From the IMG/VR virus record IMGVR_UViG_3300045988_066341: a DNA stretch of 64,000 nucleotides, one strand, 5' to 3'. The DNA comes from a virus. Positions 2,384 through 60,107 of this stretch are shown here, in pieces. A program made the translations under genes and the position numbers. Position 1 is the first letter of the stretch, and every line of letters begins with the position of its first letter. The notes under the pieces were generated by a model. It saw only the letters and a program-made list of their open reading frames with translations, did not search any database and was not told where the DNA came from.

Positions 2384-3280
2384 ATGGAAACTGCAAACAA
2401 ACTAATTTATAAGCAAACAAATTATTTTAAAGAAGACGGAGAGGAATATAGAATAATAGTCACTGTATCTTTAGATGATGATTGTCATAACAATATATGT
2501 GACTGGGGCATAACGGCTGATATCAGACGAAAAAACAAATATGGACGATATGAGGAGTATATGGGAGGTTGCTGTCACGGTGAAATTGCGAAGTATGTTC
2601 CAGAATTGGCAAAATTCATACCATTACATTGCTATAACCATTATGGTGCTCCTATGTATCCGGTGGAAAATGGTACGTATTACATAAAGAATAGCGATAA
2701 GTCTGCAGCTATTGAATATTTACGTATATCAGACAAGGAATATTCCAAATTATCTGAAGCGGTAGACGATAAGATGTATTTCAAGTATCTGCTTTTCAAT
2801 CTTGGGATTGTGGATAGATGGAAAAGAGAATCAGACGAGCTTCTTGTTGAACTTGAAGACCTGTGTGGAAAGAAATGGGTTAATCCATATAAGCTGGAAG
2901 AAGAAAAGTTTACCCTAATACTAACAGACAAGGAACGATCTTTTATTGAAGAGCGCATTGAAGCTGGGTATTATTCCATAGAAAATATAGAAAAACGCCG
3001 GGAAGAGACTCATAACGCAAAGATGATGAAAGAGTGTGCCAAGATTTGTGAACTATATGACAAACAAATTAGAAAGGCAGAAGTTGGGAAGAAGATAATA
3101 CTCTGTGTGTTTGATCATGGATTATCTGTTGATAATGTAATATATTATAATCATACGAACACGTTAGTCTTTAACTGGTGTGACCATATAGAAAAAATCA
3201 CTAAAGAAAAGTTTGATGATTTCGTAAATAACGTAGATCGTTCCCGACTTCCGGAAGGAATTAAATTTGAGTTAAAGTAA
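2384..3280 (+). CDS. hypothetical protein (298 aa), Cys/His-rich N-terminal half
   Basis: ORF track; no assignable motif. Confidence 0.7.
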   Translation: METANKLIYKQTNYFKEDGEEYRIIVTVSLDDDCHNNICDWGITADIRRKNKYGRYEEYMGGCCHGEIAKYVPELAKFIPLHCYNHYGAPMYPVENGTYYIKNSDKSAAIEYLRISDKEYSKLSEAVDDKMYFKYLLFNLGIVDRWKRESDELLVELEDLCGKKWVNPYKLEEEKFTLILTDKERSFIEERIEAGYYSIENIEKRREETHNAKMMKECAKICELYDKQIRKAEVGKKIILCVFDHGLSVDNVIYYNHTNTLVFNWCDHIEKITKEKFDDFVNNVDRSRLPEGIKFELK

Positions 3281-3285
3281 TTTTT
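3278..3285 (+). promoter_or_regulatory. near-consensus Bacteroidota -7 box (TAATTTTT)
   Basis: The box is followed by AGTCTACACATAA and the 13-mer AATCACTATCAGA (3297-3309), 4 nt before ATG 3313. The extended motif resembles the boxes at 9693 and 31112. Confidence 0.35.
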
Positions 3286-3312
3286 AGTCTACACATAATC
3301 ACTATCAGAAAA

Positions 3313-3597
3313 ATGAACAAGATTATAGAAGATTACAAAAAGATAGTTGCCGGCAAAAACATCTGCTTTATGTCAAGAGGAGAATACGCTGATCCGAAAA
3401 TAGCGTACAAAGGTATCCTCATGAATTACTGGGATGTGTATGATTGTATGGATGAGGTAGAAGAACCGACAGATGATGATTGGTTAAACGCAGTAAGTAA
3501 TTTGTTTGACTCATATACATATGATGTTGAGAATACGGATGTTGATAAATTCAAGATGTCGGATGTAATGAACGTATATCGTATTATTAATCTGTAG
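3313..3597 (+). CDS. hypothetical protein (94 aa)
   Basis: ORF track; co-oriented and tightly packed with neighbours; no motif recognised. Confidence 0.6.
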   Translation: MNKIIEDYKKIVAGKNICFMSRGEYADPKIAYKGILMNYWDVYDCMDEVEEPTDDDWLNAVSNLFDSYTYDVENTDVDKFKMSDVMNVYRIINL

Positions 3598-3622
3598 TTG
3601 TATAACAAAAAAAAATATTGAT

Positions 3623-4684
3623 ATGAACAACTCTATGGTCGCTCACTTATGGGCAAATGAAAAGAAAGAATCCGGAAAAGGTAGTAATCTTTTCTTTGAA
3701 GGTAGAAGTATTTATTCTTATGGTTATCATTTTGAGGTTGGAAGAATCGTAAGAAATAAGTGTGGTGAAAAGGCGTATTTGCTTAACGATGAGTATTATT
3801 CTTCTTCTACCTGTAAACATCAACGTTGTGTTCGTAGTGCAATACCAACTGGTTCAAAGGTATTTTCTGTTGGATATAATATGTCTGATGATGGTAGCAT
3901 GGCTTTTATCACCAGTCGATTGGAGCTTATCAAAGAGGTTATCGAGAAATACAAGAAGGTCAGAACAAGCCTGTCTTATAGGGATGTTTGGGGAGTATTT
4001 AGAAGTCTAATGGATTATATTGAGTTCTTTAATATGGGTACTCCCGAGAGCCTTCTTAAAAAGAGCGCAAACAACTGGATTGGAACTAAACATGCGTTAT
4101 CTTATGAATCGGATAAGATTAAAAGTGAATATGTCCATGAGTTAAAGCGTGTGTTTGAGGTATTGCTAAATCATCAAGCGTTAGAAACTTTAGGGACGAC
4201 CAATGTGATAGTAGATGAGATTTGTGGTGAAGGAACGTGGGCTGGGTATGTGGCCAGATGTCAGAGATGGAAAGATAGTCAGGCGAAAAAAGAGGCTTTA
4301 ATTTTTGAAAAAAGAAGAAAAGAGAAAGAAGATCGCAAGAAAAAATTTGAAGAACAGATCGAGATGTGGAAGTCTGGCAAGATTCTGGAATTATATCTAC
4401 ATTATTATTTGGAGGATAACCAGCCTAACGTATGGCTTCGCATCAAGAATGGCATAATTGAGACTAGCAAGAATATCAAGATAGGACGAGCTGAGGCTGA
4501 GAGACTTTGGAAATTGATAAAGTTCTTCCATAATGGCAGTAAATTCCAACACGATATGGTATTGGATACAACCGGTCACAAATGGAAGATCAATAGCTAT
4601 AAGAATGATATATTGGTTGCTGGATGTCACAGGATCGCATATAGCGAGATGGAGGGTGTTGCGAGACAATTAGGATGGGATTAA
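3623..4684 (+). CDS. hypothetical protein (353 aa)
   Basis: ORF track. The N-terminal AHLWANE...NLFFEGRSIYSYGYHF pattern recalls an uncharacterised plasmid/phage early-gene family. Confidence 0.7.
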   Translation: MNNSMVAHLWANEKKESGKGSNLFFEGRSIYSYGYHFEVGRIVRNKCGEKAYLLNDEYYSSSTCKHQRCVRSAIPTGSKVFSVGYNMSDDGSMAFITSRLELIKEVIEKYKKVRTSLSYRDVWGVFRSLMDYIEFFNMGTPESLLKKSANNWIGTKHALSYESDKIKSEYVHELKRVFEVLLNHQALETLGTTNVIVDEICGEGTWAGYVARCQRWKDSQAKKEALIFEKRRKEKEDRKKKFEEQIEMWKSGKILELYLHYYLEDNQPNVWLRIKNGIIETSKNIKIGRAEAERLWKLIKFFHNGSKFQHDMVLDTTGHKWKINSYKNDILVAGCHRIAYSEMEGVARQLGWD

Positions 4685-4874: not shown

Positions 4875-5207
4875 ATGAGTATTAAAGAAGGAGATATGGT
4901 ATCTATAAGACAGGATTTTATCAATCGATATAAAAATGTGCAAGAATCCATCATAAAGGCAATGGATAAGGCATTGGAGCGGGCAATAGGGAACAAGGTA
5001 ATAGATTTCGAGAAGTGTGAAGGCAATTATTTGGACGTCTATCCTCTTATTGGGGCGGTCTTACAGAAGGAGGTAAGGAGAGTACTTGGCGAAAATGTGA
5101 ATAAGAATATATGCCAGAGTATGAAAATAAAGGCGACCAAGTACAGAAATGATTACAGGGTATGGTTGGACTATGCCGGGGATTACAGAAACGAAAATAT
5201 AGAATAA
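4875..5207 (+). CDS. hypothetical protein (110 aa)
   Basis: ORF track; co-oriented; no motif recognised. Confidence 0.6.
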   Translation: MSIKEGDMVSIRQDFINRYKNVQESIIKAMDKALERAIGNKVIDFEKCEGNYLDVYPLIGAVLQKEVRRVLGENVNKNICQSMKIKATKYRNDYRVWLDYAGDYRNENIE

Positions 5208-5208
5208 C

Positions 5209-5661
5209 ATGAAATATCAAAATTTTATGTGCCCTTATGAGCTTGCGCTAAAGTTGCATGAGTTGGGTATAAATTCGGAGTCGGAATTTTATTTTGTGAA
5301 AGAGATGAAAGGAGGGGAAACCCAGATAGATTCAGTTGTGCAAAATACAATGAGGTATTCATATAGAAAAGAAGGCGACCTCATACCGGCTTATATGAGT
5401 CATGAACTTGGAGAGATACTACCAAGTATGATAAATGTCAGTAAATCAAAAATATGGGATGACTGGTTGCAGTTGACACAATATTTCCCGAATAAGGATA
5501 GCGAATATTACGAAACTGCCTATGTTCGATACGATGCTTACAATCCACAAACAGAAGTGTATAGTGGATTTGGAGATACAGAGGTAGAGTCGAGAGCGAT
5601 GCTACTTATTGATCTATTGGATAAAAAAGTATTGACATTAAGTGATTTAAACTTAAATTAG
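5209..5661 (+). CDS. hypothetical protein (150 aa)
   Basis: ORF track; starts 1 nt after the upstream stop. Confidence 0.6.
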   Translation: MKYQNFMCPYELALKLHELGINSESEFYFVKEMKGGETQIDSVVQNTMRYSYRKEGDLIPAYMSHELGEILPSMINVSKSKIWDDWLQLTQYFPNKDSEYYETAYVRYDAYNPQTEVYSGFGDTEVESRAMLLIDLLDKKVLTLSDLNLN

Positions 5662-5722
5662 ATTAGATGGGAAATCACTGAAATTAAATAGATATATAAT
5701 TACATTACCTAAATTAAATATT

Positions 5723-5929
5723 ATGAGCGATGATGAAATAATGAAAGCGGCTCAATTGATAGCCAACTCCTCAGCAGCCTTGATAGAGGCTATGGGGATG
5801 ATGAGCGAAAATATCGAGAGAGCTAATAAGGGCGAGTCTTTGGCTTATACTGAAGATCATTTCATGAAAGTGATTCAAGATAACGGGATAACGTATAACG
5901 ATGTAATACAAAGGGGTTGGAGATTATGA
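5723..5929 (+). CDS. hypothetical protein (68 aa)
   Basis: ORF track; co-oriented. Confidence 0.55.
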   Translation: MSDDEIMKAAQLIANSSAALIEAMGMMSENIERANKGESLAYTEDHFMKVIQDNGITYNDVIQRGWRL

Positions 5930-6291
5930 AAGACGTAGAAAGAGTAAACGTATTAAATAAAATGCTATTAAATGCGAACGTAGTAGCTTATGGAGCTATG
6001 GTTGATTTGATTAAAAGAACAGGGAGACTTGATCTTGATATGAATAGCGTAGGCCATATAGATGATTTTCCGGCTGAAATAAGGGTCTTTACCGATAATA
6101 GATTGATTTGTTTATCTATAACATCCGTGTATTTATCGGGAGAAGATAATTTGATGGTCGATGGATATGATGACGATAATGATAAAGTTGATGGGGTGAA
6201 TGTTTATTACGACCAGATAAGTGAGGTGGTATATCTGGCTAAAATCATATTAGAAGAAATGGAGGGAAAAGATCATGGAGAAAGCAGTTAA
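5926..6291 (+). CDS. hypothetical protein (121 aa)
   Basis: Track ORF 5917..6291 starts on TTG. I moved the start to ATG 5926 (ATGA overlap with the upstream stop). Confidence 0.55.
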   Translation: MKDVERVNVLNKMLLNANVVAYGAMVDLIKRTGRLDLDMNSVGHIDDFPAEIRVFTDNRLICLSITSVYLSGEDNLMVDGYDDDNDKVDGVNVYYDQISEVVYLAKIILEEMEGKDHGESS

Positions 6292-6457
6292 AACAGATAT
6301 GGAGTATAGGGAGATATTGGAGAAATCATTATCGGCTATTCAATATCTAAAGATACATGGATTCTCGACATACATGGAATCGGAGGGGATTGTAAATAGG
6401 ATAATGATGTTCAAGGATAAGAATGAGATGAGAGATCAAAAGATCAGATCAATTTAA
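6275..6457 (+). CDS. hypothetical protein (60 aa)
   Basis: ORF track; 17-nt overlap with the upstream gene. Confidence 0.45.
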   Translation: MEKAVKTDMEYREILEKSLSAIQYLKIHGFSTYMESEGIVNRIMMFKDKNEMRDQKIRSI

Positions 6458-6468
6458 TAGAACTAATT

Positions 6469-6780
6469 ATGACAGTAGAGTATAAGTGTATTGATGTTTA
6501 CAAGAAGCCGGAGAATCCAATGGAATGGTTGCCGTGTCCACGATGCGGCCTCCGGCCTCTGGTCTGGGAGTTCGATAACGGGAGATCCACGGCGTGCGGG
6601 TGCGGGACAAACTGCTATCATCATTGGAGCGTGCAGGCAGAAAGCATTATGTCAGTCATAAATAGGTCTGACAATGGTCATTCGGCTAAGGAGTACGACA
6701 TTGATGAGCTTAAAAATAACTGGAATCACTGGGTGAATACAGGAGAGATCCTGTTTACGCCAGGGAATGGGAAATGGTAA
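6469..6780 (+). CDS. zinc-ribbon protein, possibly Lar-like (restriction alleviation family)
   Basis: CPRCG-x16-CGCG Cys pattern near the N-terminus and a C-terminal NNWNHW motif. The family call is tentative. Confidence 0.5.
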   Translation: MTVEYKCIDVYKKPENPMEWLPCPRCGLRPLVWEFDNGRSTACGCGTNCYHHWSVQAESIMSVINRSDNGHSAKEYDIDELKNNWNHWVNTGEILFTPGNGKW

Positions 6781-42900: not shown

Positions 42901-45900
42901 GCCTTGCCGCCCTCGGACCGCTCTATCCCACGAAGTATCTCCTTGAACTCGGCGGAAGCCTTACGACCCTCGTTGGTATTCCCGAACTCCTCGGCCCACG
43001 CCTCGTCCCATGCCTTGATCTCCTCGGACATCATCAGAGCCTCGGATCCCTCTTCCTTTGGTGTCCCATCGGAATACCACTCGCTCTTGGCTATAGCCCT
43101 ATCACGAAGGATATCCAGATAAGATCTCCATGCTATAGGATCGGATTGGAATGCCGACCAATCCACTTTCCCGTCTTTCACGAATTTATCCATAGCCACA
43201 TATCTACTCCTGCGGATACGGGACATGAAATCGGATGTAGCTTGTGATACCCTGCGACCCAGCCTTTCCTCTACCTTCTTGTTCACATTCTCGATCTTAT
43301 CGTAATAAGCCTGCACCATAGGTTTCTCACGATTCTCATCCAACCACCTATTTATCGCATCGAGATATCGTTGCTGATCCTCGAATGTCATGGCCGAGAT
43401 ATCAAAATTCTGGATACTTGGCTTGAATATATGACTGACCTCCTTTGTAATAGGTTTATCACCATCATATCCTATGATATCATCACGAGTCTTGACCTTA
43501 AGCCCCTTATCAGATAAAAGCATGTCGACAAGTTGCTTCTCGGTCTTACCCGTAACCTTTTTAAGATCATATATATCAATAATAGCTTTCGCCTGCTCTG
43601 TCCGATACAGTAAATCGTATTTGGCGAAATCACGGGACGAGTCAAGGTAATCCGAGTTCTTCCCATTTATCTTCTGTATAAGATCCTCATTATCCTTTAT
43701 CCCCCATCCACGCTCTTTCATCATCTTCGTCATCTTATTGATATTAGCCACGCCCTCAACATGAGCGTCGTTATAAGCCTTGGCAAGACGTTGCCCTAAC
43801 ATGCCTAAGATAGCGTTCCCGCTATGTTCTAACGTCCCGAAAAACCGGGACATGACATTGATATCCTTATGGATGTTATCTATCAACTTCTTTATCCCAT
43901 TCCAATATCTTTCCGGGATATTAAACATCCGGAGCTGTCCATCCAGCCAATCCTCGTTACGATCGCTACGAAGGGCGTTTATATCAGACATAGATGTCTC
44001 AGCCATCCGCAATATATCATCCATATCCTCTACCATGCCAACCTTGTTGTTGCCATAATAATCCGCCGCCTGATTATTGACGAATCCACGAAGGTTCCTG
44101 ATTAACGGTACTATCTCCCCATATACGTTATCGATAACCTGTATCGTCTCATAATCCAATCCTTTTCCGCTCTTACGTAGGCTACTGGCAACCGTAACCA
44201 AATACTCCACCTCAGCCTTGGCGGTCGCTATGACACTCTTGGTGGATAACAGGTTGTTGTTTTTATTAAGCTCACCCCCGACTTGTCTCACCTTCTCGCC
44301 TATATCACGAAGAAGGGAGATACTCTCACCGATCCTCTGGCTTTGGCTTGATCTCATCCTCTGCAATCTAGTATACAGCCTTTCTAATGACCTGCCATTC
44401 TTGATCAGCTTATTAGCCACGTCAATGTCCGATAACGAGTACATGAGATGATCGCTATCCTTTAGCAGAAGCACGTCAAAGGCGCTTGGATCATCAGCTA
44501 ACGCCGACTCCTTTATCCTGTCAAGTACCTTATTCAAATCCGATCTTTGGCTGGAGAAGAAATTACGTATAGCTCGTACCATCCTGCCAAACAAGGAGAG
44601 CTGGGCGTCCTCGGACGAGGCCAGATCCTCCACCGCCTGTTCCATGCCCGGTACGAACCGCTGGGCCAACGTCTTACCTAGGATCTCCCGCTTCACCATC
44701 CGATCCAGTTCCTCCCCTTGGTATTCCTTCCCATACACCTCATAGTAACGACCGGCGAATTGATTCCATAATGGCGTGTCGACAACAGAGTCCAGAACCT
44801 CGTCAATCTCCTGCTGATTACGATAAGTATCGATCAAGAAGTGAGCCACCTCCTCATTAAGATCCTCTACCGTAGCTCCCTCAGCCAGGGCAATAACCCC
44901 ATTAGCCATATCGGATAAGGCCCTAGCCGAAGGCTCGACACCATTACGCATCTTATACTTATCCATATATTCGGACATACCCATCACACGGATACCTAAC
45001 GTGGATAAGATGTTGGTGATATCAGTCCTGTTCTGAAGATCCTCCGCCTTCTCATTCTCAATAACCCCACGGACATTACTTCCGTACAAGGCGTTATCCT
45101 CCATCATCAACGACAAGGCTAGCTCCATGAACCCATCATACTTATTATTAAGCTCCTCAAACTTACCTTGCCTTAACATGCCCTTTATCTCCGATCTGCT
45201 TACCGTAACCTTCTCCCCTGATGTCGTGATAAGATCAAGATCGTTATTTACCTCCGTATCAAAACCGATGGAGCCTAATACGTTCATCTCAGAAGACATA
45301 CTACCAAACCTGTTCCTTAGTCTAGACAAGGCGTCCATAGCGTTATAGATCTTAAGACCATCAGAGTTGCCGGCTCCGGTAAGATAATACCTATCCCCTA
45401 ACCTTATACGCTCCCCGCTCAACAGACCTTTCTTGATAAGGTAATTGACAAACCCTCCACGAGTGCTTATATTAGAGCCTGAGCTGATACCAAGGACCGG
45501 TATGAATGACTCGCTGTTGTTAAGGGTTATGGAGGACGAGCCAAAGGAGATATCAGCCGTACCGGACGGGACGTCACTCTCCTCGACACTGCCGGCCAAG
45601 AACCCGGCCTCGATCCGCCCGCCGGACGAGCCTTTTATGACGTTGGCGTAAGAGTCGTGTATCTTGCCGTCATCCGATCTAAAGAACAACCTGGGCTCCC
45701 CGCTATCATAAGCAAGGAGATTGTTTATCTGGTTCATGGGCTTACTAAGCTCCTTATCCACCTCCGATAACCTATCCCTTGACCTAGTGAGAAGCGTACG
45801 CATATCCGTATCATTCATCTTAATATCGAGACCCATGGAACGAAGGGCGTCACGGATAAACGACACTATCTTATCCCATAAGCTGGAGTCCGGATTGGAT

Positions 45901-47195
45901 TCGGCAAAGGTAGCCATAAACTCCTCGGCGGCTATAATCTGATTGCCATATCGGTCTAAATAAGACCGCTGGTCAGCCTCGTCCATCGAATCGAATATCT
46001 TCCTCATCGTATCATCAAAACGATTACCAAGAAGATCTCTAAGCCCTTTATGCGCAACTACCTCATGCAAGATAGTTCTCTCCAAATCCTGCTCATCCTC
46101 TATATTGTCAGCTACGATAGTGATGGTATCGGTATCCGTGTCATACCATCCCTTGCTCTTGGACATCATATCGGCGTAATCATGATCACTTACCTCACTT
46201 CTTATATCGTCAATCGAAACGATATTCACCGTAGTACCTAATTTAGCGAGACCAGATACTTTCTCCGACATACCGGCCTTTACCTCGCTTACGTCCCTGA
46301 ATCTCAAATCCCCAGGTCTCTTCCTTGTCACGACGACGGCCGTCATGCCAGACGCCATTCCGCTGTTGCCGGGATTCGCAGTCTCCACCTCGAACATACC
46401 CCCAAGCTCACGCTCGACATATTCTTTAAGCGACGACCTCGTGAACCCTTTTTGATAGGCCCTGATATTCCCCTTTGAATCAGTGACAAGTATCTCCGAC
46501 GGATCGTCAAGCTCTATTTTCTGCTTTTGTGCGGACACGCCCTTAGCGTCACGGACATTTATGAACAACTTGCCTCCGACCTTCAATTTGTCAGCCATTG
46601 ATTTAAGTACGTCGGATCTCCAATCATCAGGGATCACGTTCAATACAGCGTTGCTGATTATGTAATCATACTTCTTGTCTATATCCTCGTACCTCAAATA
46701 CGTGGGAGGGACCCTTTTGGATGACGGGTAAGGCTCGACATCATCGACATCCATCCCCATATCACGTAACGCCCGCGTGCCAACGCCAAGACCTGACGAG
46801 GCGTCCAATATAGATTTACCCTCCATACCTTCGTTGGATATAAAATCACCGATCCTCTTATACGTGTTCACGGTAGACGTGATCTGCGTGGAATGCTGAC
46901 CGGTAGAAGTGGTCTGGCCGCTAAGCCACGTGGGATATTCCTCGAACAGCCGTGACGACGTCCTAAACCTAAGGGATGACCTTAATCCCTCTTTCTTGGC
47001 GTTAGACACCCAATCCCCGAACCTGGACCTGAACTTATCGTTATACGTGGCCATATAAGCCTCGGCGGCCTTATCAAGGTCACTCACGGCGGCTATACCC
47101 GATATCTTATCGAACAAGGTAGATACCTCGCCGGAAGGGGTCAAGACACGGGTTATCTTACCCTCCTTATTCCTTTTAATTACGCAACTCGACAT
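39951..47195 (-). CDS. 2,414-aa multidomain (polyvalent-type) late protein with embedded class I SAM-methyltransferase fold
   Basis: Uninterrupted ORF. The start is set at ATG 47195 (MSSCVIKRNKEG), 16 nt downstream of a -7 box. The methyltransferase motifs are ILDASSGLGVG, DVDDVEP, DYIISNAVLNVI and LKVGGKLFINV. Hydrophobic helices lie near the C-terminus. Confidence 0.9.
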   Translation of the reverse strand: MSSCVIKRNKEGKITRVLTPSGEVSTLFDKISGIAAVSDLDKAAEAYMATYNDKFRSRFGDWVSNAKKEGLRSSLRFRTSSRLFEEYPTWLSGQTTSTGQHSTQITSTVNTYKRIGDFISNEGMEGKSILDASSGLGVGTRALRDMGMDVDDVEPYPSSKRVPPTYLRYEDIDKKYDYIISNAVLNVIPDDWRSDVLKSMADKLKVGGKLFINVRDAKGVSAQKQKIELDDPSEILVTDSKGNIRAYQKGFTRSSLKEYVERELGGMFEVETANPGNSGMASGMTAVVVTRKRPGDLRFRDVSEVKAGMSEKVSGLAKLGTTVNIVSIDDIRSEVSDHDYADMMSKSKGWYDTDTDTITIVADNIEDEQDLERTILHEVVAHKGLRDLLGNRFDDTMRKIFDSMDEADQRSYLDRYGNQIIAAEEFMATFAESNPDSSLWDKIVSFIRDALRSMGLDIKMNDTDMRTLLTRSRDRLSEVDKELSKPMNQINNLLAYDSGEPRLFFRSDDGKIHDSYANVIKGSSGGRIEAGFLAGSVEESDVPSGTADISFGSSSITLNNSESFIPVLGISSGSNISTRGGFVNYLIKKGLLSGERIRLGDRYYLTGAGNSDGLKIYNAMDALSRLRNRFGSMSSEMNVLGSIGFDTEVNNDLDLITTSGEKVTVSRSEIKGMLRQGKFEELNNKYDGFMELALSLMMEDNALYGSNVRGVIENEKAEDLQNRTDITNILSTLGIRVMGMSEYMDKYKMRNGVEPSARALSDMANGVIALAEGATVEDLNEEVAHFLIDTYRNQQEIDEVLDSVVDTPLWNQFAGRYYEVYGKEYQGEELDRMVKREILGKTLAQRFVPGMEQAVEDLASSEDAQLSLFGRMVRAIRNFFSSQRSDLNKVLDRIKESALADDPSAFDVLLLKDSDHLMYSLSDIDVANKLIKNGRSLERLYTRLQRMRSSQSQRIGESISLLRDIGEKVRQVGGELNKNNNLLSTKSVIATAKAEVEYLVTVASSLRKSGKGLDYETIQVIDNVYGEIVPLIRNLRGFVNNQAADYYGNNKVGMVEDMDDILRMAETSMSDINALRSDRNEDWLDGQLRMFNIPERYWNGIKKLIDNIHKDINVMSRFFGTLEHSGNAILGMLGQRLAKAYNDAHVEGVANINKMTKMMKERGWGIKDNEDLIQKINGKNSDYLDSSRDFAKYDLLYRTEQAKAIIDIYDLKKVTGKTEKQLVDMLLSDKGLKVKTRDDIIGYDGDKPITKEVSHIFKPSIQNFDISAMTFEDQQRYLDAINRWLDENREKPMVQAYYDKIENVNKKVEERLGRRVSQATSDFMSRIRRSRYVAMDKFVKDGKVDWSAFQSDPIAWRSYLDILRDRAIAKSEWYSDGTPKEEGSEALMMSEEIKAWDEAWAEEFGNTNEGRKASAEFKEILRGIERSEGGKAAFEFLLAGGHLGFSKDMWGSEEGDYYENLVDKITEQSVSSSRIEKVEEAMATINEINDQLRPLLIQYRDSTRYGEYDFDRLRGSASLRKINELYDRLAEAKSVINAAASAEAIEMDMPDTVESGVTDSYRNALRDAMVYDKGMDEIKFAKGHMSARSRSQVDRMAAKLSRKNPSWTTVEVSFLRRKYGPDFNNKLANDIAMGKADKILVEYARTRLYPYMRRYSPKGYSGFVRKINNGTYKVSEFFDAIENGISKEESVSRFGFDINMIDLTINNQWLDEADAESSFRNPNYNPDLGYGYHTPRFDKYKNEAFFKKYGITNEGEEATINKDKWEMRKELLNISRKAMEDYDERFRNIYQIPQISKGGVERMVQAGVDPKAAIGNAVRDIVGERVDDPIHGQGQDLGGLDENDNKYRMIPKYYLSKLENADDVSHDFAYSYSMLSLQATSYKYKRAALDDVMGYRNMMLETQYDGGKNPEATHAYRMFQDWVNASIYDVRINNKRAEWNIGNYKVDLNKLALMFTKFVSRSNLGFSPFVAATGALTGQANFLLEGMVGQYISKDSMKYAYGEAQKQLSTYVSEIGDINRTNKLYVVGEALGVFNVRNRVRSAAYNKIWRTLFRDLPFKMMEVLNSPLDPQVIISVMDDTRLYEGQFWSYSNFKEMMMKDRNMSANEAKRDWERLRDYSMWNMVDVKDGKIVAKNEANKDIIDRYIPTLSSRVRSMVQICDGALNEQNRVGASRNAILNMVLPHRGWFILAVQRAYKKAGFNFQTNQFEEGYMRTLWRLAGNVYGSMSEGRMGEAYDVLKEEYDKLTPYEQINIKRSIINMAVFATMMAIGRALMGYREDNEDSWFGQFITYIGFRTINEIASQASPFMELNAIDMLQDPLVTARKLGDLTDPRNWDPFATVQTGVYKGESKLWRQLMKFSFGKQWYNIKTARDIKQTSDYWLMTNGMTMGFFLGGRNKDESGEDANWYFDRGR
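46323..46865 (-). other. SAM-dependent methyltransferase-like domain inside the giant ORF (track residues ~125-305)
   Basis: Motif I LDxxxGxG with downstream acidic residues and motif II/III-like strands. No DPPY-type motif was seen, so the substrate is unknown. Confidence 0.65.
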
Positions 47196-47220: not shown

Positions 47221-47250
47221 ACAAAAAGCCCCCACAAAAGAGCGGGGGCT
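47221..47250 (-). terminator. intrinsic terminator AGCCCCC-n10-GGGGGCT + UUUUUGUUU
   Basis: 7-bp GC stem (47227-47250) followed on the minus strand by a T-run. It lies directly after the DUF2829-like gene. Confidence 0.7.
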
Positions 47251-47273
47251 AATATCCAAACGCGAGAAGATGA

Positions 47274-47597
47274 TCATAATATCATCCAATCGGTAGCCAG
47301 CATATCAGTCTGAGATGCTAACCAGCCATTTACGATAGTATCATCAGCGGCTTTCATACACAAATAAGCCGTGAACTTGATCTTGTCCGTTTCCGAGTCA
47401 CCATAATTATTAGCAACCCATTTCTTTACTGCATCAGGTAAGGATTTAACCTTATTCACGACCATGTCTGTAGACAAACAGTCTTCAGGACGCTGAAAAA
47501 TAAACATCCCTTTTCCATTCCATCCCTCACGGCAAGCCAACTCTCCTTTCTTCACAGCCTCAATAGCCTCTCCAAATGTCAATCCTTTATCATTCAT
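47274..47597 (-). CDS. DUF2829-family protein (Tad2-like candidate)
   Basis: [34 protein letters not shown] ... [18 protein letters not shown] fits the DUF2829 N- and C-terminal signatures. The start is set at ATG 47597, 22 nt after the -7 box. Confidence 0.7.
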
Positions 47598-47619
47598 GAT
47601 TGTAATTATTTTAATTAAA

Positions 47620-47627
47620 CAAATATA
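47620..47627 (-). promoter_or_regulatory. -7 box TATATTTG in the 44-nt spacer before the DUF2829-like gene
   Basis: Reverse complement of caaatata. Confidence 0.45.
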
Positions 47628-47641
47628 GGTAAAAATAATCA

Positions 47642-48415
47642 TTATTCTTCAACTTTCCCTAACACGACATCCGATATACATCTGGCACACCATCCTACCA
47701 TATAAGCTATAGGCTCTTGATTGTCAGCATGAAACTTGATCCCTAACTCGCTAAGAATATCCATAGAGACATGAAACGCCTCGTGAGAGATCATAGACGG
47801 ATCAACATCCTTGTCATCTATCCACACGACAACCAGTTCCCCGTATTTACCGGTATCCTTAAATCTCACCATAGGGAAAGTAGTCATGGATGGCTCCGAT
47901 CCCACCTCCATCTCAATCTCAATCTCAGAGTCATCCCTTGTCGTAAACCTGTCTATAACATCCTTTGGCTCGCACCCTTTCATCACGAACAAGCTCCTCG
48001 GATATATCTTAGGATCAAACTCATATACTATTTTATCCATTTTCTTTTCACCATTCTTTCTAATATTATGTTTCCCAAAAATAGGATCACGTGGATCCTT
48101 TTTTGGATTATAACTAAACACCTTATCAGTTAATTCTTTAAGTTGATTATTCATCTCCATAAGTCTTATAAAACGATCATTCGTATATGCCTTAAACTCA
48201 TAAACAGGCAACCCGGAAGAGCTGGATATCTCAGCGGAAGGGGATACGACTATAAAATCCCCATCATTAATAATTATGTGCTTATTATCACGCTCCACGG
48301 AATAATATCCATTTCTTTCTGTAACAGATATACCAAAACGTTCTATAGCCTTATTGATATTCACAATATCATATGAATGAAATTTGAATACCTCCGTATT
48401 TAAAGAATATATCAT
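47642..48415 (-). CDS. protein with C-terminal HExxH zincin-like motif (257 aa)
   Basis: HEAFH is encoded at 47771-47785 and is followed by ...IKFHADNQE. The N-terminal half is unassigned. Confidence 0.6.
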
Positions 48416-48690
48416 AACTCTCTTAATTTCCCTATAACCTCAAAACACATCTTACACTCAATCCTACGATACAACTGCCTTACGCCATCTATCGTAGTCC
48501 AATAACGACCACCCTCACGGTGTAGGAACTCGCTCATAACTTTAGTGTCAGCCACATCATGTAAATCATATGAACTGAAACATAACTTACATATATCGTC
48601 AAGATCAAAATAAGTAACCTTATTATACGATATACAACGGATTTGTCCTCCATCAGGAATCTGAACATCGAAAACATCTATCTTCTCCAT
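48412..48690 (-). CDS. hypothetical protein (92 aa), possibly Bro-N/KilA-N-like
   Basis: First gene of the cassette, ATGA-coupled to the next gene. The ...KVTYFDLDDICKL... pattern is only suggestive. Confidence 0.5.
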   Translation of the reverse strand: MEKIDVFDVQIPDGGQIRCISYNKVTYFDLDDICKLCFSSYDLHDVADTKVMSEFLHREGGRYWTTIDGVRQLYRRIECKMCFEVIGKLREL

Positions 48691-48780
48691 ATTAAAAATA
48701 GAGGGATACCGATCCCATCACAGACCTGTATCCCCTTATAATAAATTAGCGACGAAAAGCATGGTGATGGACATGCGCCA
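48691..48780 (-). promoter_or_regulatory. structured 5' leader (hairpin 1 with loop UCCAUCAC; terminator-like hairpin 2 with loop containing GUGAUGG)
   Basis: Hairpin 1 lies at 48759-48776 and hairpin 2 at 48703-48734. UCUAUUUUUAAU then runs directly into AUG 48690. Confidence 0.6.
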
Positions 48781-48811
48781 CAAATGTAATTACAAAATTC
48801 GTAAAAACAAA
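48781..48811 (-). promoter_or_regulatory. promoter: -33 TTTG (48808-48811), 19-nt spacer, -7 TACATTTG (48781-48788)
   Basis: Matches the Bacteroides consensus in both sequence and spacing. Confidence 0.65.
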
Positions 48812-48814
48812 ATA

Positions 48815-49132
48815 TCAAGGGCAATCACCCGTGCATTCGCATGGAGCATCGCTTTTCAAAACCCCATATACCCGATTGTCGCTAGTCAGCCATCGTTTGC
48901 CGTCGCTCGTGATATAAGCCTGCCGGCATCCCTCCTGATTCACCGTGAGCGTCTTCTTAACACCTTTTGGAGTTGTTATCTCCAGCTCAAGAGTCCGATC
49001 AAGACCGTTGTTCATCACCGAGCCAAAGGAAACGGGGGCGCTTCCGGCCCCGGACCCCGGACTGACGGTAAGAGGCTGGTCCGTTACCTCGCCTACCCCG
49101 TCCTTCCAATTAATATTCAAATCATTAGCCAT
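48815..49132 (-). CDS. Ig/BACON-like small protein (105 aa)
   Basis: LTVSPGSGAGSAPVSFGSVMNNGLDRTLELEITTPKGVKKTLTVNQEG resembles the distal half of BACON-type beta-sandwich domains. Confidence 0.55.
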   Translation of the reverse strand: MANDLNINWKDGVGEVTDQPLTVSPGSGAGSAPVSFGSVMNNGLDRTLELEITTPKGVKKTLTVNQEGCRQAYITSDGKRWLTSDNRVYGVLKSDAPCECTGDCP

Positions 49133-51033: not shown

Positions 51034-53058
51034 TTAATCTTGTTCTTTAACGGCGATGCTATACTTGCCTGAAGCGTAACACCAGATATTTATCTCGAAA
51101 GGCTTGTTAGCCGTAGTGGTTATAGAAGTTCCGCTCATGCTGACATAATCCCCGGAATTAGGTATCGCTTGGGTGAAAGCCGCTGAGGGTACACACCTGA
51201 TCATCAGCTCCTCCCCTACCTGCATCCCTGACTGCACGGATAGGGTGGTAGCGGCTGATAACGTAGCCGTGATACTTCTCTTGCTAATAGGCAGGTTAGC
51301 TAATGTCGTGACCGTATTAACTCCTATAAGCCTGTTCATGGTCTTCTTGTCAGCCGCCGCCATCAACCCGTTAGTAGACTCGTTGGCTACGGCGTATGTC
51401 GTGTTAGGAGGTGTAGCCCAAGTGCCATCTCCACGCATGAAACTGGATGTGCTTCCATTAAGCTGTCTCAATAAGCCGTTAGCTGTAGTAGAGGCTAATC
51501 CGTATGTGGTATTGGTAGGCACTACCCACGTTCCATCACCACGAAGAAAAGATGCCTGCTTGCCAGCGGCTGGGGCCGGTACCAATCCCGCAGCACCAGC
51601 CGCCGAGGCCGTAGCCGCCTTCATATTGGCGTAGGTAGTATTCGTATCCTTATAATAGGGGATACCACCGACAATAGGACAAGCCGTATATCCAGAGGCG
51701 TTTGTCACGGTACTGCCGTTCTTGACCAATCCTGTGGACCCGTTAGCTCCTACAACACCATACGTTGTATTAGTATCCGTCCAAGGCACGTTAACATACA
51801 TCTTACCACTACTATCCAGCTCTACCGGATAATTCTTACCGTTCTCAGTATATCCGATCATCACCAATCCTAATGTCGTGGTATTGGCCTTGGCGTATGT
51901 GGTATTTGTCGGAACCACCCACGTACCATCGCCACGGAGGAAAGAGGTTTGCTTGCCGGCAGTCGGAGCGGGTACCAATCCCGCCGATCCTGCGGCTGAG
52001 GACGTCGCTCCACCCATGTTGCTATATGTGGTATTAGGAGGGGTTTGCCATGTCCCGTCACCACGAAGATACTTGGCTTGCGCTCCGGCGGCAGGTGCGG
52101 GGACCAAACCTGCCTTTCCCGCCGCTGAGGCAGAAGCGGCTCCCATATTGGTGTATGTCGTGTTGGTATCCGTCCACGGAACATTCACATACATCTTACC
52201 ATTTCCGTCAAGAGCTACCGGATAATTCTTCCCATTAGCTGAGTACCCGATCTTAACAAGACCCAGATTATCGCTCGTGGCCTGTGAGTATGTAGTGTTA
52301 TTGTCAGTCCAAGGGACATTGACGTACATCTTGCCATTAGCCAAGAGCACAGCGTAGTTCTTTCCATTAGAAGCATAGCCGATCTTAACCAATCCTAAGG
52401 TGTCGGCCGTGGCTTCATTATACGTTGTGTTATTATCCGTCCATGGAACGTTGACGTAAGCGTTGCCGAACGAATCCAGTTGCACCTTATAGTTCTTCCC
52501 GGAAGTCGTATATCCCACCTTAATACCGCCAAGAACGGTAGCGGAGGACGTGGGAGGTGTGAAGGTACTTGGTTTGCCCGTAACCCCTGACCAAGGCACG
52601 GAGGAAGCCTGACTGGCCGTGTAAGGCTCATACCCATCCTCACTGTTTAATTTAGACTCGTCTTTTATCAGATACATCTTACCTGTAGACGTGACCTTTA
52701 CCGTATCACCACTTTGAGCCGTAGCGGTGGTAAGGGCGAATCTAGCCGTATCATTAGCTACCACGACCAATCTCTCCAAAGCCGCCTTAGGTAACCTATC
52801 TATGCTGATGGTTCCGGACGCGATCTTAGAGGCATCAAAATTGGCCAATGTCGTGGAGATAGTTACGTTGTCTCCGAAGTCCGATGAGACACTACCGGTA
52901 ACAGCCCCGGACAGCGCTATGGTCCTAGCCGCCTGTAATTTCGTGGCGGTAGGGGCATTATCCGTCTTAAGAGCATATTTGGTAAGATCAATATCATTAG
53001 CCTTATCCAAAAGCTGCTCTATCTGCTTACCATTGTATTTACCTTGAAAATCTTCCAT
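51034..53058 (-). CDS. tail fibre protein (674 aa) with nine NTTY-terminated repeats
   Basis: Repeats of two types: GLVKIGY..NGKNY.V.LD..GKMYVNVPWTD.NTTY and AGLVPAPAAGKQ.SFLRGDGTW..P.NTTY. Confidence 0.85.
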   Translation of the reverse strand: MEDFQGKYNGKQIEQLLDKANDIDLTKYALKTDNAPTATKLQAARTIALSGAVTGSVSSDFGDNVTISTTLANFDASKIASGTISIDRLPKAALERLVVVANDTARFALTTATAQSGDTVKVTSTGKMYLIKDESKLNSEDGYEPYTASQASSVPWSGVTGKPSTFTPPTSSATVLGGIKVGYTTSGKNYKVQLDSFGNAYVNVPWTDNNTTYNEATADTLGLVKIGYASNGKNYAVLLANGKMYVNVPWTDNNTTYSQATSDNLGLVKIGYSANGKNYPVALDGNGKMYVNVPWTDTNTTYTNMGAASASAAGKAGLVPAPAAGAQAKYLRGDGTWQTPPNTTYSNMGGATSSAAGSAGLVPAPTAGKQTSFLRGDGTWVVPTNTTYAKANTTTLGLVMIGYTENGKNYPVELDSSGKMYVNVPWTDTNTTYGVVGANGSTGLVKNGSTVTNASGYTACPIVGGIPYYKDTNTTYANMKAATASAAGAAGLVPAPAAGKQASFLRGDGTWVVPTNTTYGLASTTANGLLRQLNGSTSSFMRGDGTWATPPNTTYAVANESTNGLMAAADKKTMNRLIGVNTVTTLANLPISKRSITATLSAATTLSVQSGMQVGEELMIRCVPSAAFTQAIPNSGDYVSMSGTSITTTANKPFEINIWCYASGKYSIAVKEQD
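51394..52545 (-). repeat. in-frame repeat region of the tail fibre gene (residues 172-555)
   Basis: Nine units ending in NTTY. The GC-rich repetitive DNA explains the many spurious ORFs in other frames. Confidence 0.8.
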
Positions 53059-53612: not shown

Positions 53613-53620
53613 CAAATGTA
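53613..53620 (-). promoter_or_regulatory. -7 box TACATTTG, about 145 nt upstream of ATG 53467
   Basis: Reverse complement of caaatgta. The leader contains the 9-bp inverted repeat 53541-53549 / 53580-53588. Confidence 0.4.
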
Positions 53621-53640
53621 ATCATAATAAGGCTACGATC

Positions 53641-53679
53641 AAAAAGAAACCCTATCGGTATTCTATTGCCGACAGGGTT
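53641..53679 (-). terminator. intrinsic terminator AACCCUGUCGG-n10-CCGAUAGGGUU + UCUUUUU
   Basis: 11-bp stem with one mismatch (53648-53679) followed by a T-run on the minus strand. It lies 20 nt after the stop at 53699. Confidence 0.7.
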
Positions 53680-59114: not shown

Positions 59115-59963
59115 TTATCGTTTAGCGAAAATATCTTTATCTGATCTATTCAGAACCCTGCCTTTCAATTCCAAGAACCTAGGCATCCATTCTTTAGATA
59201 TCTTAGACACGATCCACTGAAATCCCTTAGGAGTCACATAGACAGTATTAGTGCCGTAGAACTCGTCATCATTACGATATCTGTAACGAGCATAACCGCT
59301 GTCTATCATCCTTTGGGAAAGCAACCACCTCTTACCGGTCTTAGCGAAGAACTTCTTATCCTCAAGCAATATTCGAAGATTCTTCTCCGCTATATCATAT
59401 CCATGAGCCTCTAGCTTTTCCCGAACCTCTCTGATCAACATATCTGTCTCTTGGGCTATTTCGGCTGTCTTAGCAAACTCAACCATAGGAGCCTGTTCTT
59501 TGATGATGTTATCAGATATCCTTTTAGCCTCTAATGCAAGCTTAGCTTCTTTTTCAGCCCTTTCTCTAGCTTCCACCTCATCAGCATACATCCGTAAAGC
59601 CTCCGAATAGCTAGATGGTATTTTATTTATCACTTTATGAAAAACATCCCTGTAAACATTAAATACAGATCTAACCTTTCTAGCTATAAAATACTCCATA
59701 CAAGATATAGAAATCATATAAACATTTACAGGTCTTCCTACTGTCGTATTTTCGCCATTTGTGGCTAAAATCTCATAATCAATACCTTGCATAAACTGAT
59801 CACTACTTACTAAAGCTCTAACAGCTTTCTCCTTAGCCGAATAAACCAATGGCCATACATCATCTAAATTAACAGGGAATTTATCACCAAGTTTACTTAG
59901 ATTTAAAACCTTTTCAAAATACGATCTGATAGATAAGTCATCACTCAAAACAATATTACACAT
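59115..59963 (-). CDS. phage antirepressor (AntA/AntB-like N-domain + KilAC domain)
   Basis: The N-domain reads FPVNLDDVWPLV...FMQGIDYE...YFIARKV. The C-domain reads APMVEFAKTAE...IREVREKLEAHGY...VYVTPKGFQWI. The start is set at ATG 59963. Confidence 0.75.
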   Translation of the reverse strand: MCNIVLSDDLSIRSYFEKVLNLSKLGDKFPVNLDDVWPLVYSAKEKAVRALVSSDQFMQGIDYEILATNGENTTVGRPVNVYMISISCMEYFIARKVRSVFNVYRDVFHKVINKIPSSYSEALRMYADEVEARERAEKEAKLALEAKRISDNIIKEQAPMVEFAKTAEIAQETDMLIREVREKLEAHGYDIAEKNLRILLEDKKFFAKTGKRWLLSQRMIDSGYARYRYRNDDEFYGTNTVYVTPKGFQWIVSKISKEWMPRFLELKGRVLNRSDKDIFAKR

Positions 59964-60076
59964 AATACAAAACAACAAGGGCCGTTGGCGTCCGTTATTC
60001 CACCAATAGCCCTCATCTATCGCCTACGCCTAGGCGAGTTAATATCTTCTTATGGCCCAATAACGGATGGACACCG
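59964..60076 (-). promoter_or_regulatory. structured ~105-nt 5' leader of the antirepressor gene
   Basis: 9-bp long-range complementarity between 59991-59999 and 60059-60067. GGGCC/GGCCC at 59979-59983 / 60054-60058 is in a crossing arrangement. The palindrome CGCCTAGGCG lies at 60027-60036, and a U-rich tract precedes the AUG. Confidence 0.45.
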
Positions 60077-60107
60077 CAAATATAAGACCTTATTTTGAAA
60101 CTACAAA
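60077..60107 (-). promoter_or_regulatory. promoter: -33 TTTG (60104-60107), 19-nt spacer, -7 TATATTTG (60077-60084)
   Basis: Consensus sequence and spacing. It is followed by CGGTGTCCATC, as in the other two cassette promoters. Confidence 0.65.

Follow-up and report, generated by a model that had tools for sequence, protein, structure and literature searches.

A Tad2/AcrIIA7-family gene, probably encoding a signal sponge, carried as an accessory in a conserved transcription unit of a large gut Bacteroidales phage

This work concerns a three-gene unit in a 64,000-nucleotide stretch of viral DNA (hereafter the window) from the IMG/VR record IMGVR_UViG_3300045988_066341, whose source is a gut Bacteroidales phage of about 155 kb belonging to a lineage of about 150-160 kb. 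The unit lies on the minus strand, and its three open reading frames (ORFs), promoter, leader and terminator are all found within 47227-48811, where a first-pass annotation of the window had placed them. Sequence comparisons show that the unit combines a conserved backbone with an accessory gene, ORF-C, whose product most likely works as a sponge of the Tad2/AcrIIA7 family. The backbone comprises the promoter, the leader, ORF-A, a small gene of the phrog_1365 family encoding an HExxH motif and the terminator, all upstream of a giant virion-protein gene. The window and a minority of relatives have the HExxH gene as the allele called here ORF-B, with ORF-C following it. ORF-C adds one more case to an already known kind of counter-defence gene, and the cassette does not amount to a novel type of system.

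ORF-C is a close homologue of solved Tad2 and AcrIIA7 proteins

ORF-C (47274-47597, minus strand) encodes a 107-aa protein belonging to the Tad2/AcrIIA7 family, in its long-insertion, head-less form. The first-pass annotation had assigned this protein to DUF2829/Tad2, and searches of Pfam and of the PDB bear the assignment out. ORF-C matches PF11195 (Tad2-like) over profile positions 2-73 of 73 with E = 8.8e-23 and 81.1 bits, far above the cut-off of 25, and its PDB matches are led by AcrIIA7 (9KZR, 5e-54), HgmTad2 (8KBI, 4.5e-53) and SptTad2 (8WJD, 4e-33), followed by weaker matches at about 1e-14 to 9EIB, 8V3E and 8SME (7e-14 for SPO1 Tad2). ORF-C and HgmTad2 are 75% identical over 101 residues, with zero gaps, including in the β2-β5 insertion.

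The residues of HgmTad2 that contact glycocyclic ADP-ribose (gcADPR) and the cyclic dinucleotides (CDNs) cGG and 3',3'-cGAMP, together with mutants that lose binding, have been described (Li et al., 10.1101/2023.11.15.567273). The conservation of the ligand pockets, which the earlier Tad2 call had made worth checking, is complete, since all 21 published contacts are identical in ORF-C. These include the 12 residues contacting gcADPR (HgmTad2 W21, N22, G23, M76, A78, T82, V84, W87, L88, S90, T92 and D93) and the nine contacting CDNs (R31, P32, D34, L36, K46, S47, F70, T71 and N85). Among them are the sites that were mutated in HgmTad2, namely W21/N22, S90/T92/D93, R31/N85, S47 and F70.

ORF-C most likely acts as a Tad2-type tetrameric sponge directed against the signals of Thoeris and of cGG-type cyclic oligonucleotide-based antiphage signalling systems (CBASS), both being relevant in Bacteroidales. 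By homology to HgmTad2, the protein would form a homotetramer with pockets between its dimers for two molecules of the Thoeris signal, 1''-2'/1''-3' gcADPR, and, independently, pockets made by the β2-β5 insertion for two CDNs. Among dinucleotides, cGG would be bound the most tightly, and 3',3'-cGAMP, cUG and 3',2'-cGAMP would also be accepted. Such sequestration would keep the effectors of the Bacteroidales host, of the ThsA and TIR-/TM-STING types, from becoming active. HgmTad2 was itself reported from Bacteroides phages, and their hosts use cGG-CBASS with STING effectors (Li et al., 10.1101/2023.11.15.567273).

Four points weigh against this assignment or limit it. Relatives of the phage frequently lost the gene, which is therefore dispensable in many hosts. 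Tad2 homologues of other phages sit among early or DNA-metabolism genes, whereas ORF-C is located in the structural (late) arm. Moreover, a terminator-like hairpin followed by a U-run stands in the leader region between the promoter and ORF-A, so that the timing and the level of expression are uncertain. Lastly, His-ADPR, cUMP/cCMP and N7-cADPR are reported as ligands of other members of the family and, given this range, ORF-C may have an additional or shifted ligand specificity; the identity of its pockets speaks otherwise.

Public contigs with the exact ORF-C sequence number 80-150 and reach 168 kb. Among named proteins, the nearest to ORF-C is WP_220445616.1 (DUF2829) from Parabacteroides distasonis, which is 91% identical, falls in the same 90% cluster and is encoded next to a holin gene in a prophage-like region. 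This homologue is also informative for the choice of the start codon. The stop codon of ORF-B overlaps an upstream ATG (TAATG), from which an alternative 122-aa reading of ORF-C is open. The longer form is less likely since its 15 extra residues are hydrophobic and missing from all solved homologues and since the Parabacteroides protein starts at the position of M16, i.e. at the start of the 107-aa form. The gene adjoining Tad2 in Parabacteroides prophages was also checked as a candidate member of the phrog_1365 family and is not one. In addition, the Parabacteroides prophage-like region (L297-L299) encodes an RVT_1 reverse transcriptase (2647-3687), about 1.3 kb upstream of the 91%-identical Tad2 gene, which may be part of a diversity-generating retroelement.

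ORF-C is the accessory part of a backbone unit

The unit was compared with 82 related loci, fetched via homologues of ORF-A and ORF-B. These loci share a conserved order, with BACON/Ig-like genes followed by the promoter and leader, ORF-A, one phrog_1365 gene, the terminator and the giant virion-protein gene. ORF-A and the phrog_1365 gene are present right upstream of the giant gene in 78-82 of the 82. The phrog_1365 gene encodes a 133-aa protein, 26-29% identical to the C-domain of ORF-B, in 63 loci and is a window-type ORF-B in 15. The exchange between these alleles is precise: compared with L060, exactly 48411-47256 of the window, i.e. ORF-B and Tad2, is replaced by the 133-aa homologue.

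Within the 82 loci, Tad2 is intact only in L004, whose cassette is 98.6% identical to that of the window, with flanks at 94-97%; a further intact copy was found in L262. Thirteen loci keep just the last 45-49 nt of the gene. Seven ORF-B-type loci carry an identical deletion of 327 bp that starts at the end of ORF-B and reaches codon 91 of Tad2, and six others harbor about 190 bp of unrelated sequence where Tad2 would be. Rearranged forms also exist among protein variants, Tad2 being fused to a truncated ORF-B in P0036 and being kept in P0389, from which ORF-A and ORF-B are deleted. The replacement block and the remnants indicate that Tad2 arrived with the ORF-B allele as a block and is now repeatedly lost, the rest of the unit being backbone.

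The whole cassette had been viewed earlier as a moron inserted in the late block. This view has to be abandoned for the unit as such, since the promoter, ORF-A, the phrog_1365 HExxH gene and the terminator belong to the backbone in essentially all of the 82 loci. The polymorphism of presence and absence expected from a moron is seen just for ORF-C and for the ORF-B allele relative to the distant allele, and not for the whole unit. Conversely, an own promoter and an own terminator are properties of the whole unit, and ORF-C alone has just a -7 box of the kind expected by chance.

With the cassette as megablast query, 50,697 phage records gave zero matches; no deposited genome is close to this phage. 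In 16-18 of the 82 loci, the interval between ORF-A and the giant gene is interrupted by a TnpB-type gene (OrfB_IS605 with a Cas12f1-like TNB domain, 371-407 aa), for instance in L081 (6889-8112), in L013, L033 and L036 (about 5290-6570) and in L045 (5367-6554).

Transcription signals of the unit

The separate three-gene transcription unit proposed in the first-pass annotation, with its promoter, structured leader, terminator and ORFs of 92, 257 and 107 aa, is entirely present. Its Bacteroides-type promoter (48781-48811, minus strand) consists of a -33 TTTG (48808-48811), a 19-nt spacer and a -7 box TACATTTG (48781-48788). This TTTG-N19-TACATTTG arrangement is an exact fit to the Bacteroides -33/-7 consensus. 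Three exact matches are found in the 64 kb, all on the minus strand, where 1.0 is expected; 9 of 100 shuffles give at least three, and the count alone falls short of significance. Among related phages, 37 distinct upstream sequences were compared, and 35 keep the promoter. Furthermore, the homology between otherwise divergent contexts begins exactly at the -33 TTTG, the block in common with L004 starting at 48811. Such a perfect host-type promoter suggests that the unmodified host RNA polymerase transcribes the unit, despite its location in the structural-gene arm.

The terminator (47250-47227, minus strand) is intrinsic, with a 9-bp stem including seven G-C pairs and a T-run, and is kept in nearly all related loci. 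The own promoter and strong terminator announced earlier are an exact consensus promoter and a G-C-rich hairpin with a T-run, both conserved. The same annotation had attributed an extra -7 box to the third gene. The corresponding sequence, TATATTTG, does exist at 47620-47627 (minus strand), 23 nt upstream of the ORF-C ATG. However, the window has 58 occurrences of the -7 motif with 46 expected, a frequency that chance explains, and, on direct reading, this lone box has no -33 TTTG at the proper spacing.

The structured leader (48698-48776, minus strand) includes a weak hairpin (48759-48776) and a strong hairpin of 12-13 bp (48698-48739), after which a U-run (U5) comes to its end 5 nt ahead of the ORF-A ATG, with the T-run extending to 48691. 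The fold of the 91-nt leader has a free energy of -24.4 kcal/mol (z = -2.25). The strong hairpin is kept in relatives (loci L004-L083, at about 4950-5000), with a T-run of 5-9 T.

Two other exact promoters (TTTG-N18-21-TAnnTTTG) lie on the minus strand of the window, at 53613-53643 and 60077-60107. Both are located upstream of small genes that do not look structural, for instance one encoding an ANT/KilAC anti-repressor-like protein (59115-59978), and they may mark further units driven by the host polymerase within the structural arm.

ORF-B is a fusion protein with a zincin-like C-domain of the phrog_1365 family

ORF-B (47642-48415, minus strand, 257 aa), whose start overlaps the end of ORF-A (ATGA), is made of a lineage-specific N-domain (residues 1-125, 48041-48415) and of a small zincin-like C-domain (residues 126-257, 47642-48040). 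The latter matches phrog_1365 with E = 1e-14 over 109 of 127 profile positions. An exhaustive search yielded 495 representative clusters, nearly all being stand-alone proteins of 120-150 aa that align to residues ~125-257, and residues 1-125 are found in close relatives only, often encoded by a separate gene (97-127 aa). Hence, the 257-aa ORF is a fusion. About 345 sequences have this form, alongside which split versions also exist. The AlphaFold2 model gives the N-domain a predicted local distance difference test (pLDDT) score of 30-68, and this domain weakly matches (27% identity, E = 3e-4) a 121-aa protein encoded at the same position in L001. In another locus, L003 (3063-5185), an N-domain 99% identical to that of ORF-B (132 aa) runs into an unrelated, partly hydrophobic C-terminus, and an alpha-L-fucosidase gene takes the place of the giant gene downstream; this locus reflects either chimerism of the assembly or recombination with bacterial DNA.

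The HExxH motif pointed out earlier in this protein (HEAFH, residues 211-215, 47771-47785) is real and nearly invariant over more than 100 homologues. In comparisons of 101-117 homologues, variation is nearly absent at Y138, P139, F157, H211, E212, H215, E234 (47714-47716) and Y238, the five from H211 onwards being conserved in at least 90%. The signature of the phrog_1365 family can be written HE[AS]xH-x18-21-[QDN]E[PH]xAY, and ORF-B carries HExxH-x18-ExxAY. In the AlphaFold2 model of the C-domain (pLDDT above 90), two helices that come after a β-sheet carry the HExxH (206-222) and E234 (234-251). Conservation and the predicted model therefore agree on a helical HExxH with a Glu as putative third metal ligand on the next helix, as expected from a zincin. 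This predicted arrangement is gluzincin-like and looks like that of a minimal zinc hydrolase, but the domain cannot be filed as one; a small zinc-dependent hydrolase is the best guess for ORF-B.

Database searches did not connect ORF-B to any described enzyme. Pfam, NCBIfam and PADLOC gave no match and no curated zincin family was reached, and 2-3 of 101 relatives weakly matched DUF5700, SprT-like or Tox-MPTase2. Sequence searches of the PDB with the single sequence, with a profile of 101 sequences and with a C-domain profile of 117 sequences returned noise only. Foldseek against the PDB gave a best E of 0.2, with top matches that are not zincins, the query being the full two-domain model, with which a distant resemblance could be missed. 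Against BFVD, it retrieved only uncharacterised proteins, from very diverse phages.

ORF-A is a conserved, apparently dispensable small protein

ORF-A (48412-48690, minus strand, 92 aa) is a conserved small protein with more than 413 homologues, on contigs of up to 157 kb. Its C-terminal 45 aa are nearly invariant, and it carries two CK(L/M)CF motifs. Pfam, PHROG, NCBIfam and PADLOC gave zero matches. The first-pass annotation had found a weak Bro-N/KilA-N flavour in this protein. At the level of sequence, this could not be recovered, since neither KilA-N (PF04383) nor Bro-N (PF02498) matches at E ≤1. The weak APSES/Ski-Dachshund-like look of the predicted fold is loosely compatible with it: the AlphaFold2 model (pLDDT 82) has a β3-α-α-β2-α2 fold whose best Foldseek matches are the Ski/Dachshund DHD and the N-terminal domains of Bqt4 and Swi6, with template modelling (TM) scores of 0.39-0.58, probabilities of at most 0.96 and E values (0.2-1) that are not significant. 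A small DNA-binding or zinc-binding protein is the best guess for ORF-A.

Checked at the DNA level, ORF-A is intact in about 93% of the IMG/VR genomes and disrupted in about 7%, mostly by 1-nt deletions at nt 81-130 or by deletions of 13-86 nt that are not a multiple of three. It therefore seems to be dispensable and often inactivated. Among public homologues (P0119-P0238), in-frame losses of 4-19 codons at residues ~10-58 occur in dozens of different versions, and many frameshift variants start in the +1 frame (MFSMFRFLM...). A hypervariable deletion hotspot was considered and rejected in view of the intact copies in the IMG/VR DNA; the apparent richness of variants is largely an effect of clustering, each rare variant forming its own cluster.

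Neighbouring genes

The terminator of the cassette directly precedes the giant virion-protein gene (ATG at 47195), which encodes 2,414 aa. The N-terminal module of the giant protein (45711-47009, residues ~62-495) includes Methyltransf_23, a HEVVAH region and matches to phrog_5475 and phrog_14770. The window, L060 and L063 have this module, L012 and L057 have part of it and most relatives lack it; it looks like a swappable piece of a virion-packaged polyvalent or DarB-like protein. A relationship between its HEVVAH region and the zincin-like domain of ORF-B was examined and rejected (hhalign probability of 0.1%).

On the other side of the cassette, the stop codon of the upstream Ig-like gene is at 48815. 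A neighbouring 674-aa protein has partial domain matches only, to crAss-like and Lak phages (to head fiber protein genes in the crAss-like ones). Compared with relatives, its gene shows internal tandem-like repeats of about 100-175 nt with 70-88% identity (51500-52460), which is consistent with repeated Ig-like or head-fibre domains.

Alternative explanations

ORF-C could act mainly, or also, as an AcrIIA7-type anti-CRISPR, its head-less tetramer binding the trans-activating CRISPR RNA (tracrRNA) in a basic groove and blocking the assembly of the Cas9 ribonucleoprotein. This appears unlikely, even if its top PDB match is AcrIIA7 (9KZR) and if AcrIIA7 without its N-terminal head domain, which ORF-C also lacks, is the active form and works via tracrRNA binding (Lee and Park 2026, PMC13133391). 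The basic groove of pdAcrIIA7 comprises K58, K66, K71, K93 and R101, and the K66W mutant lost binding of single-guide RNA (PMC13133391). Four of these five residues are kept in ORF-C (K16, K29, K51 and K59), but the fifth, K66, is replaced by a Glu (E24) in ORF-C and in the Parabacteroides homologues, i.e. by the opposite charge. Furthermore, the anti-Cas9 activity of HgmTad2 was not reproduced in vitro or in vivo (Li et al., 10.1101/2023.11.15.567273), and an anti-CRISPR role of ORF-C is uncertain. Another alternative, which we consider rather improbable, bears on expression: the promoter, the hairpin and the U-run would produce a small RNA of about 80 nt or form a regulated attenuator, and ORF-A to ORF-C would be late genes transcribed by read-through. 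The succession of a promoter, a strong hairpin with U5-9 and an ATG fits this scheme, as do the resemblance of the hairpin to intrinsic terminators, the lack of a terminator after the upstream Ig-like gene and ahead of the promoter, and L022 and L065, whose ORF-A entirely lacks promoter and leader. However, the leader matched no family in Rfam, its hairpin shows no compensatory covariation among the relatives that would indicate a functional RNA, and the block from promoter to terminator is inherited as a single unit. In addition, a U-rich stretch right before the ATG is also how translation-initiation regions of Bacteroidetes look.

The other alternatives give the HExxH gene a part in counter-defence or in the regulation of the phage. 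The first-pass annotation saw in the three genes a candidate counter-defence operon, with ORF-B as a possible second effector besides Tad2; in such a coordinated operon, ORF-B might for instance be a protease or a hydrolase with a defence protein or signal as its target. The same promoter and terminator serve ORF-B and Tad2, and the two were exchanged as a single block. Associations of this kind are also seen elsewhere. In L264, a P22/Sf6-like locus (5143-5904), a phrog_1365-family gene is preceded at 43 nt by a Tad2 homologue, which stands between Rz and terS; in two sister loci this distance is 2.4 kb. In L209 (3283-4486), on an unrelated contig of 123 kb, the PF21825 "Sequestin" anti-Thoeris sponge is encoded 310 nt upstream of such a gene. 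Moreover, a degenerate-signature scan of IMG/VR recovered 81 true phrog_1365-family members from 23 lineages, and Tad2-like is among the few neighbour families that recur in these. Against such an operon, 78 of the 82 loci have a phrog_1365 gene here whether Tad2 is present or not, Tad2 occurs without ORF-A and ORF-B in P0389, and it occurs without a phrog_1365 gene in Parabacteroides prophages, PV4-TP1 and csAssE-Sib. In the 50,697 records of INPHARED, 35 have a gene resembling the ORF-B C-domain and 87 one resembling Tad2, and both are found in just one record, 11 kb apart. The other neighbours of phrog_1365-family genes are ordinary lysis, packaging, primase and methylase genes, and PADLOC and Pfam give no link. 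The co-localisations themselves are few, were picked post hoc, come without a background rate and lie in known hotspots of accessory genes. All this makes a coordinated operon quite doubtful, and the phrog_1365 genes found beside Tad2 or Sequestin are a weak lead only. If the phrog_1365 family were a new counter-defence class coupled to nucleotide-signal sponges, for instance a hydrolase destroying a defence protein or a signal that the sponge is unable to bind, this would explain its Tad2 neighbours in two unrelated groups of phages and Sequestin in a third one; we hold this broader idea to be more doubtful still. Least probable of all would be a backbone pair made of ORF-A and the HExxH protein, with a regulator and a protease comparable to ImmR/ImmA controlling or processing the giant virion protein and Tad2 as a hitch-hiker. 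The order of ORF-A, HExxH gene, terminator and giant gene is invariant in about 80 loci, the predicted fold of ORF-A is DNA-binding-like and KilA-N proteins recur beside phrog_1365-family members elsewhere. However, ORF-B falls by sequence outside Peptidase_M78/ImmA and every other zincin family of Pfam, the phrog_1365-family members of other phages are not beside structural genes, and the frameshifted or deleted copies of ORF-A in IMG/VR genomes point to a dispensable protein.

Significance and comparison with known systems

If ORF-C is correctly assigned as a sponge, these large phages of gut Bacteroidales, which form an abundant lineage, are equipped with a ready inhibitor of Thoeris and of the cGG-STING CBASS, the latter being typical of Bacteroidales. 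This lineage would gain and lose the inhibitor often, and its intact copies, 327-bp deletions and replacements would constitute a natural series for studying when a sponge pays in the gut. ORF-C itself adds little to HgmTad2 and AcrIIA7, which are already solved and characterised. The residual novelty and the more open question lie in the phrog_1365 HExxH family, which occurs widely among phages and is without precedent in structure or function. Its occasional placement next to sponge genes turns it into a cheap candidate for anti-defence screening.

The C-domain of ORF-B has its counterparts in phrog_1365 members from crAss-like phages, LoVEphage and Porphyromonas, Erwinia, Serratia and P22-like phages, more than 100 homologues having HExxH-x18-21-ExxAY in common. 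The family as a whole spreads over hundreds of clusters from crAss-like, P22-like, jumbo and other phages. Unlike most of them, it is fused to a 125-aa N-domain, and a few others are fused to DUF1599. With minimal gluzincins, SprT-like and ImmA-type zincins, the predicted C-domain shares a helical HExxH, a second helix opening with a conserved Glu and a preceding β-sheet; it differs from them in matching no Pfam family, nothing in profile searches of PDB sequences and, in Foldseek, no solved zincin. ORF-A has a weak likeness in predicted fold to KilA-N, APSES and Ski/Dachshund DHD domains (TM 0.5-0.58) and differs from them by its two CK(L/M)CF motifs, which are missing in those domains.

Concerning ORF-C, the core and extended domains of pdAcrIIA7 from Phocaeicola dorei (9KZR) align end to end with it. 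The differences are the lack of the 47-residue N-terminal head domain and the Glu that replaces K66; the anti-Cas9 activity of the AcrIIA7 family is itself disputed. SPO1 Tad2 (8SME/8WJE) and MoTad2 (9EIB) belong to the same DUF2829 fold family, with a conserved gcADPR-pocket region. In contrast to ORF-C, they have a short insertion and no CDN pocket, and MoTad2 binds His-ADPR and cUMP instead. Compared with HgmTad2, a metagenomic AcrIIA7 (8KBI-8KBM, 8WJC), ORF-C differs in 25% of its residues, including E24 in place of K19, and in its gene setting, behind two other genes in the structural arm of a phage of about 155 kb. Both proteins share the long β2-β5 insertion and the niche of phages infecting Bacteroidales of the human gut.

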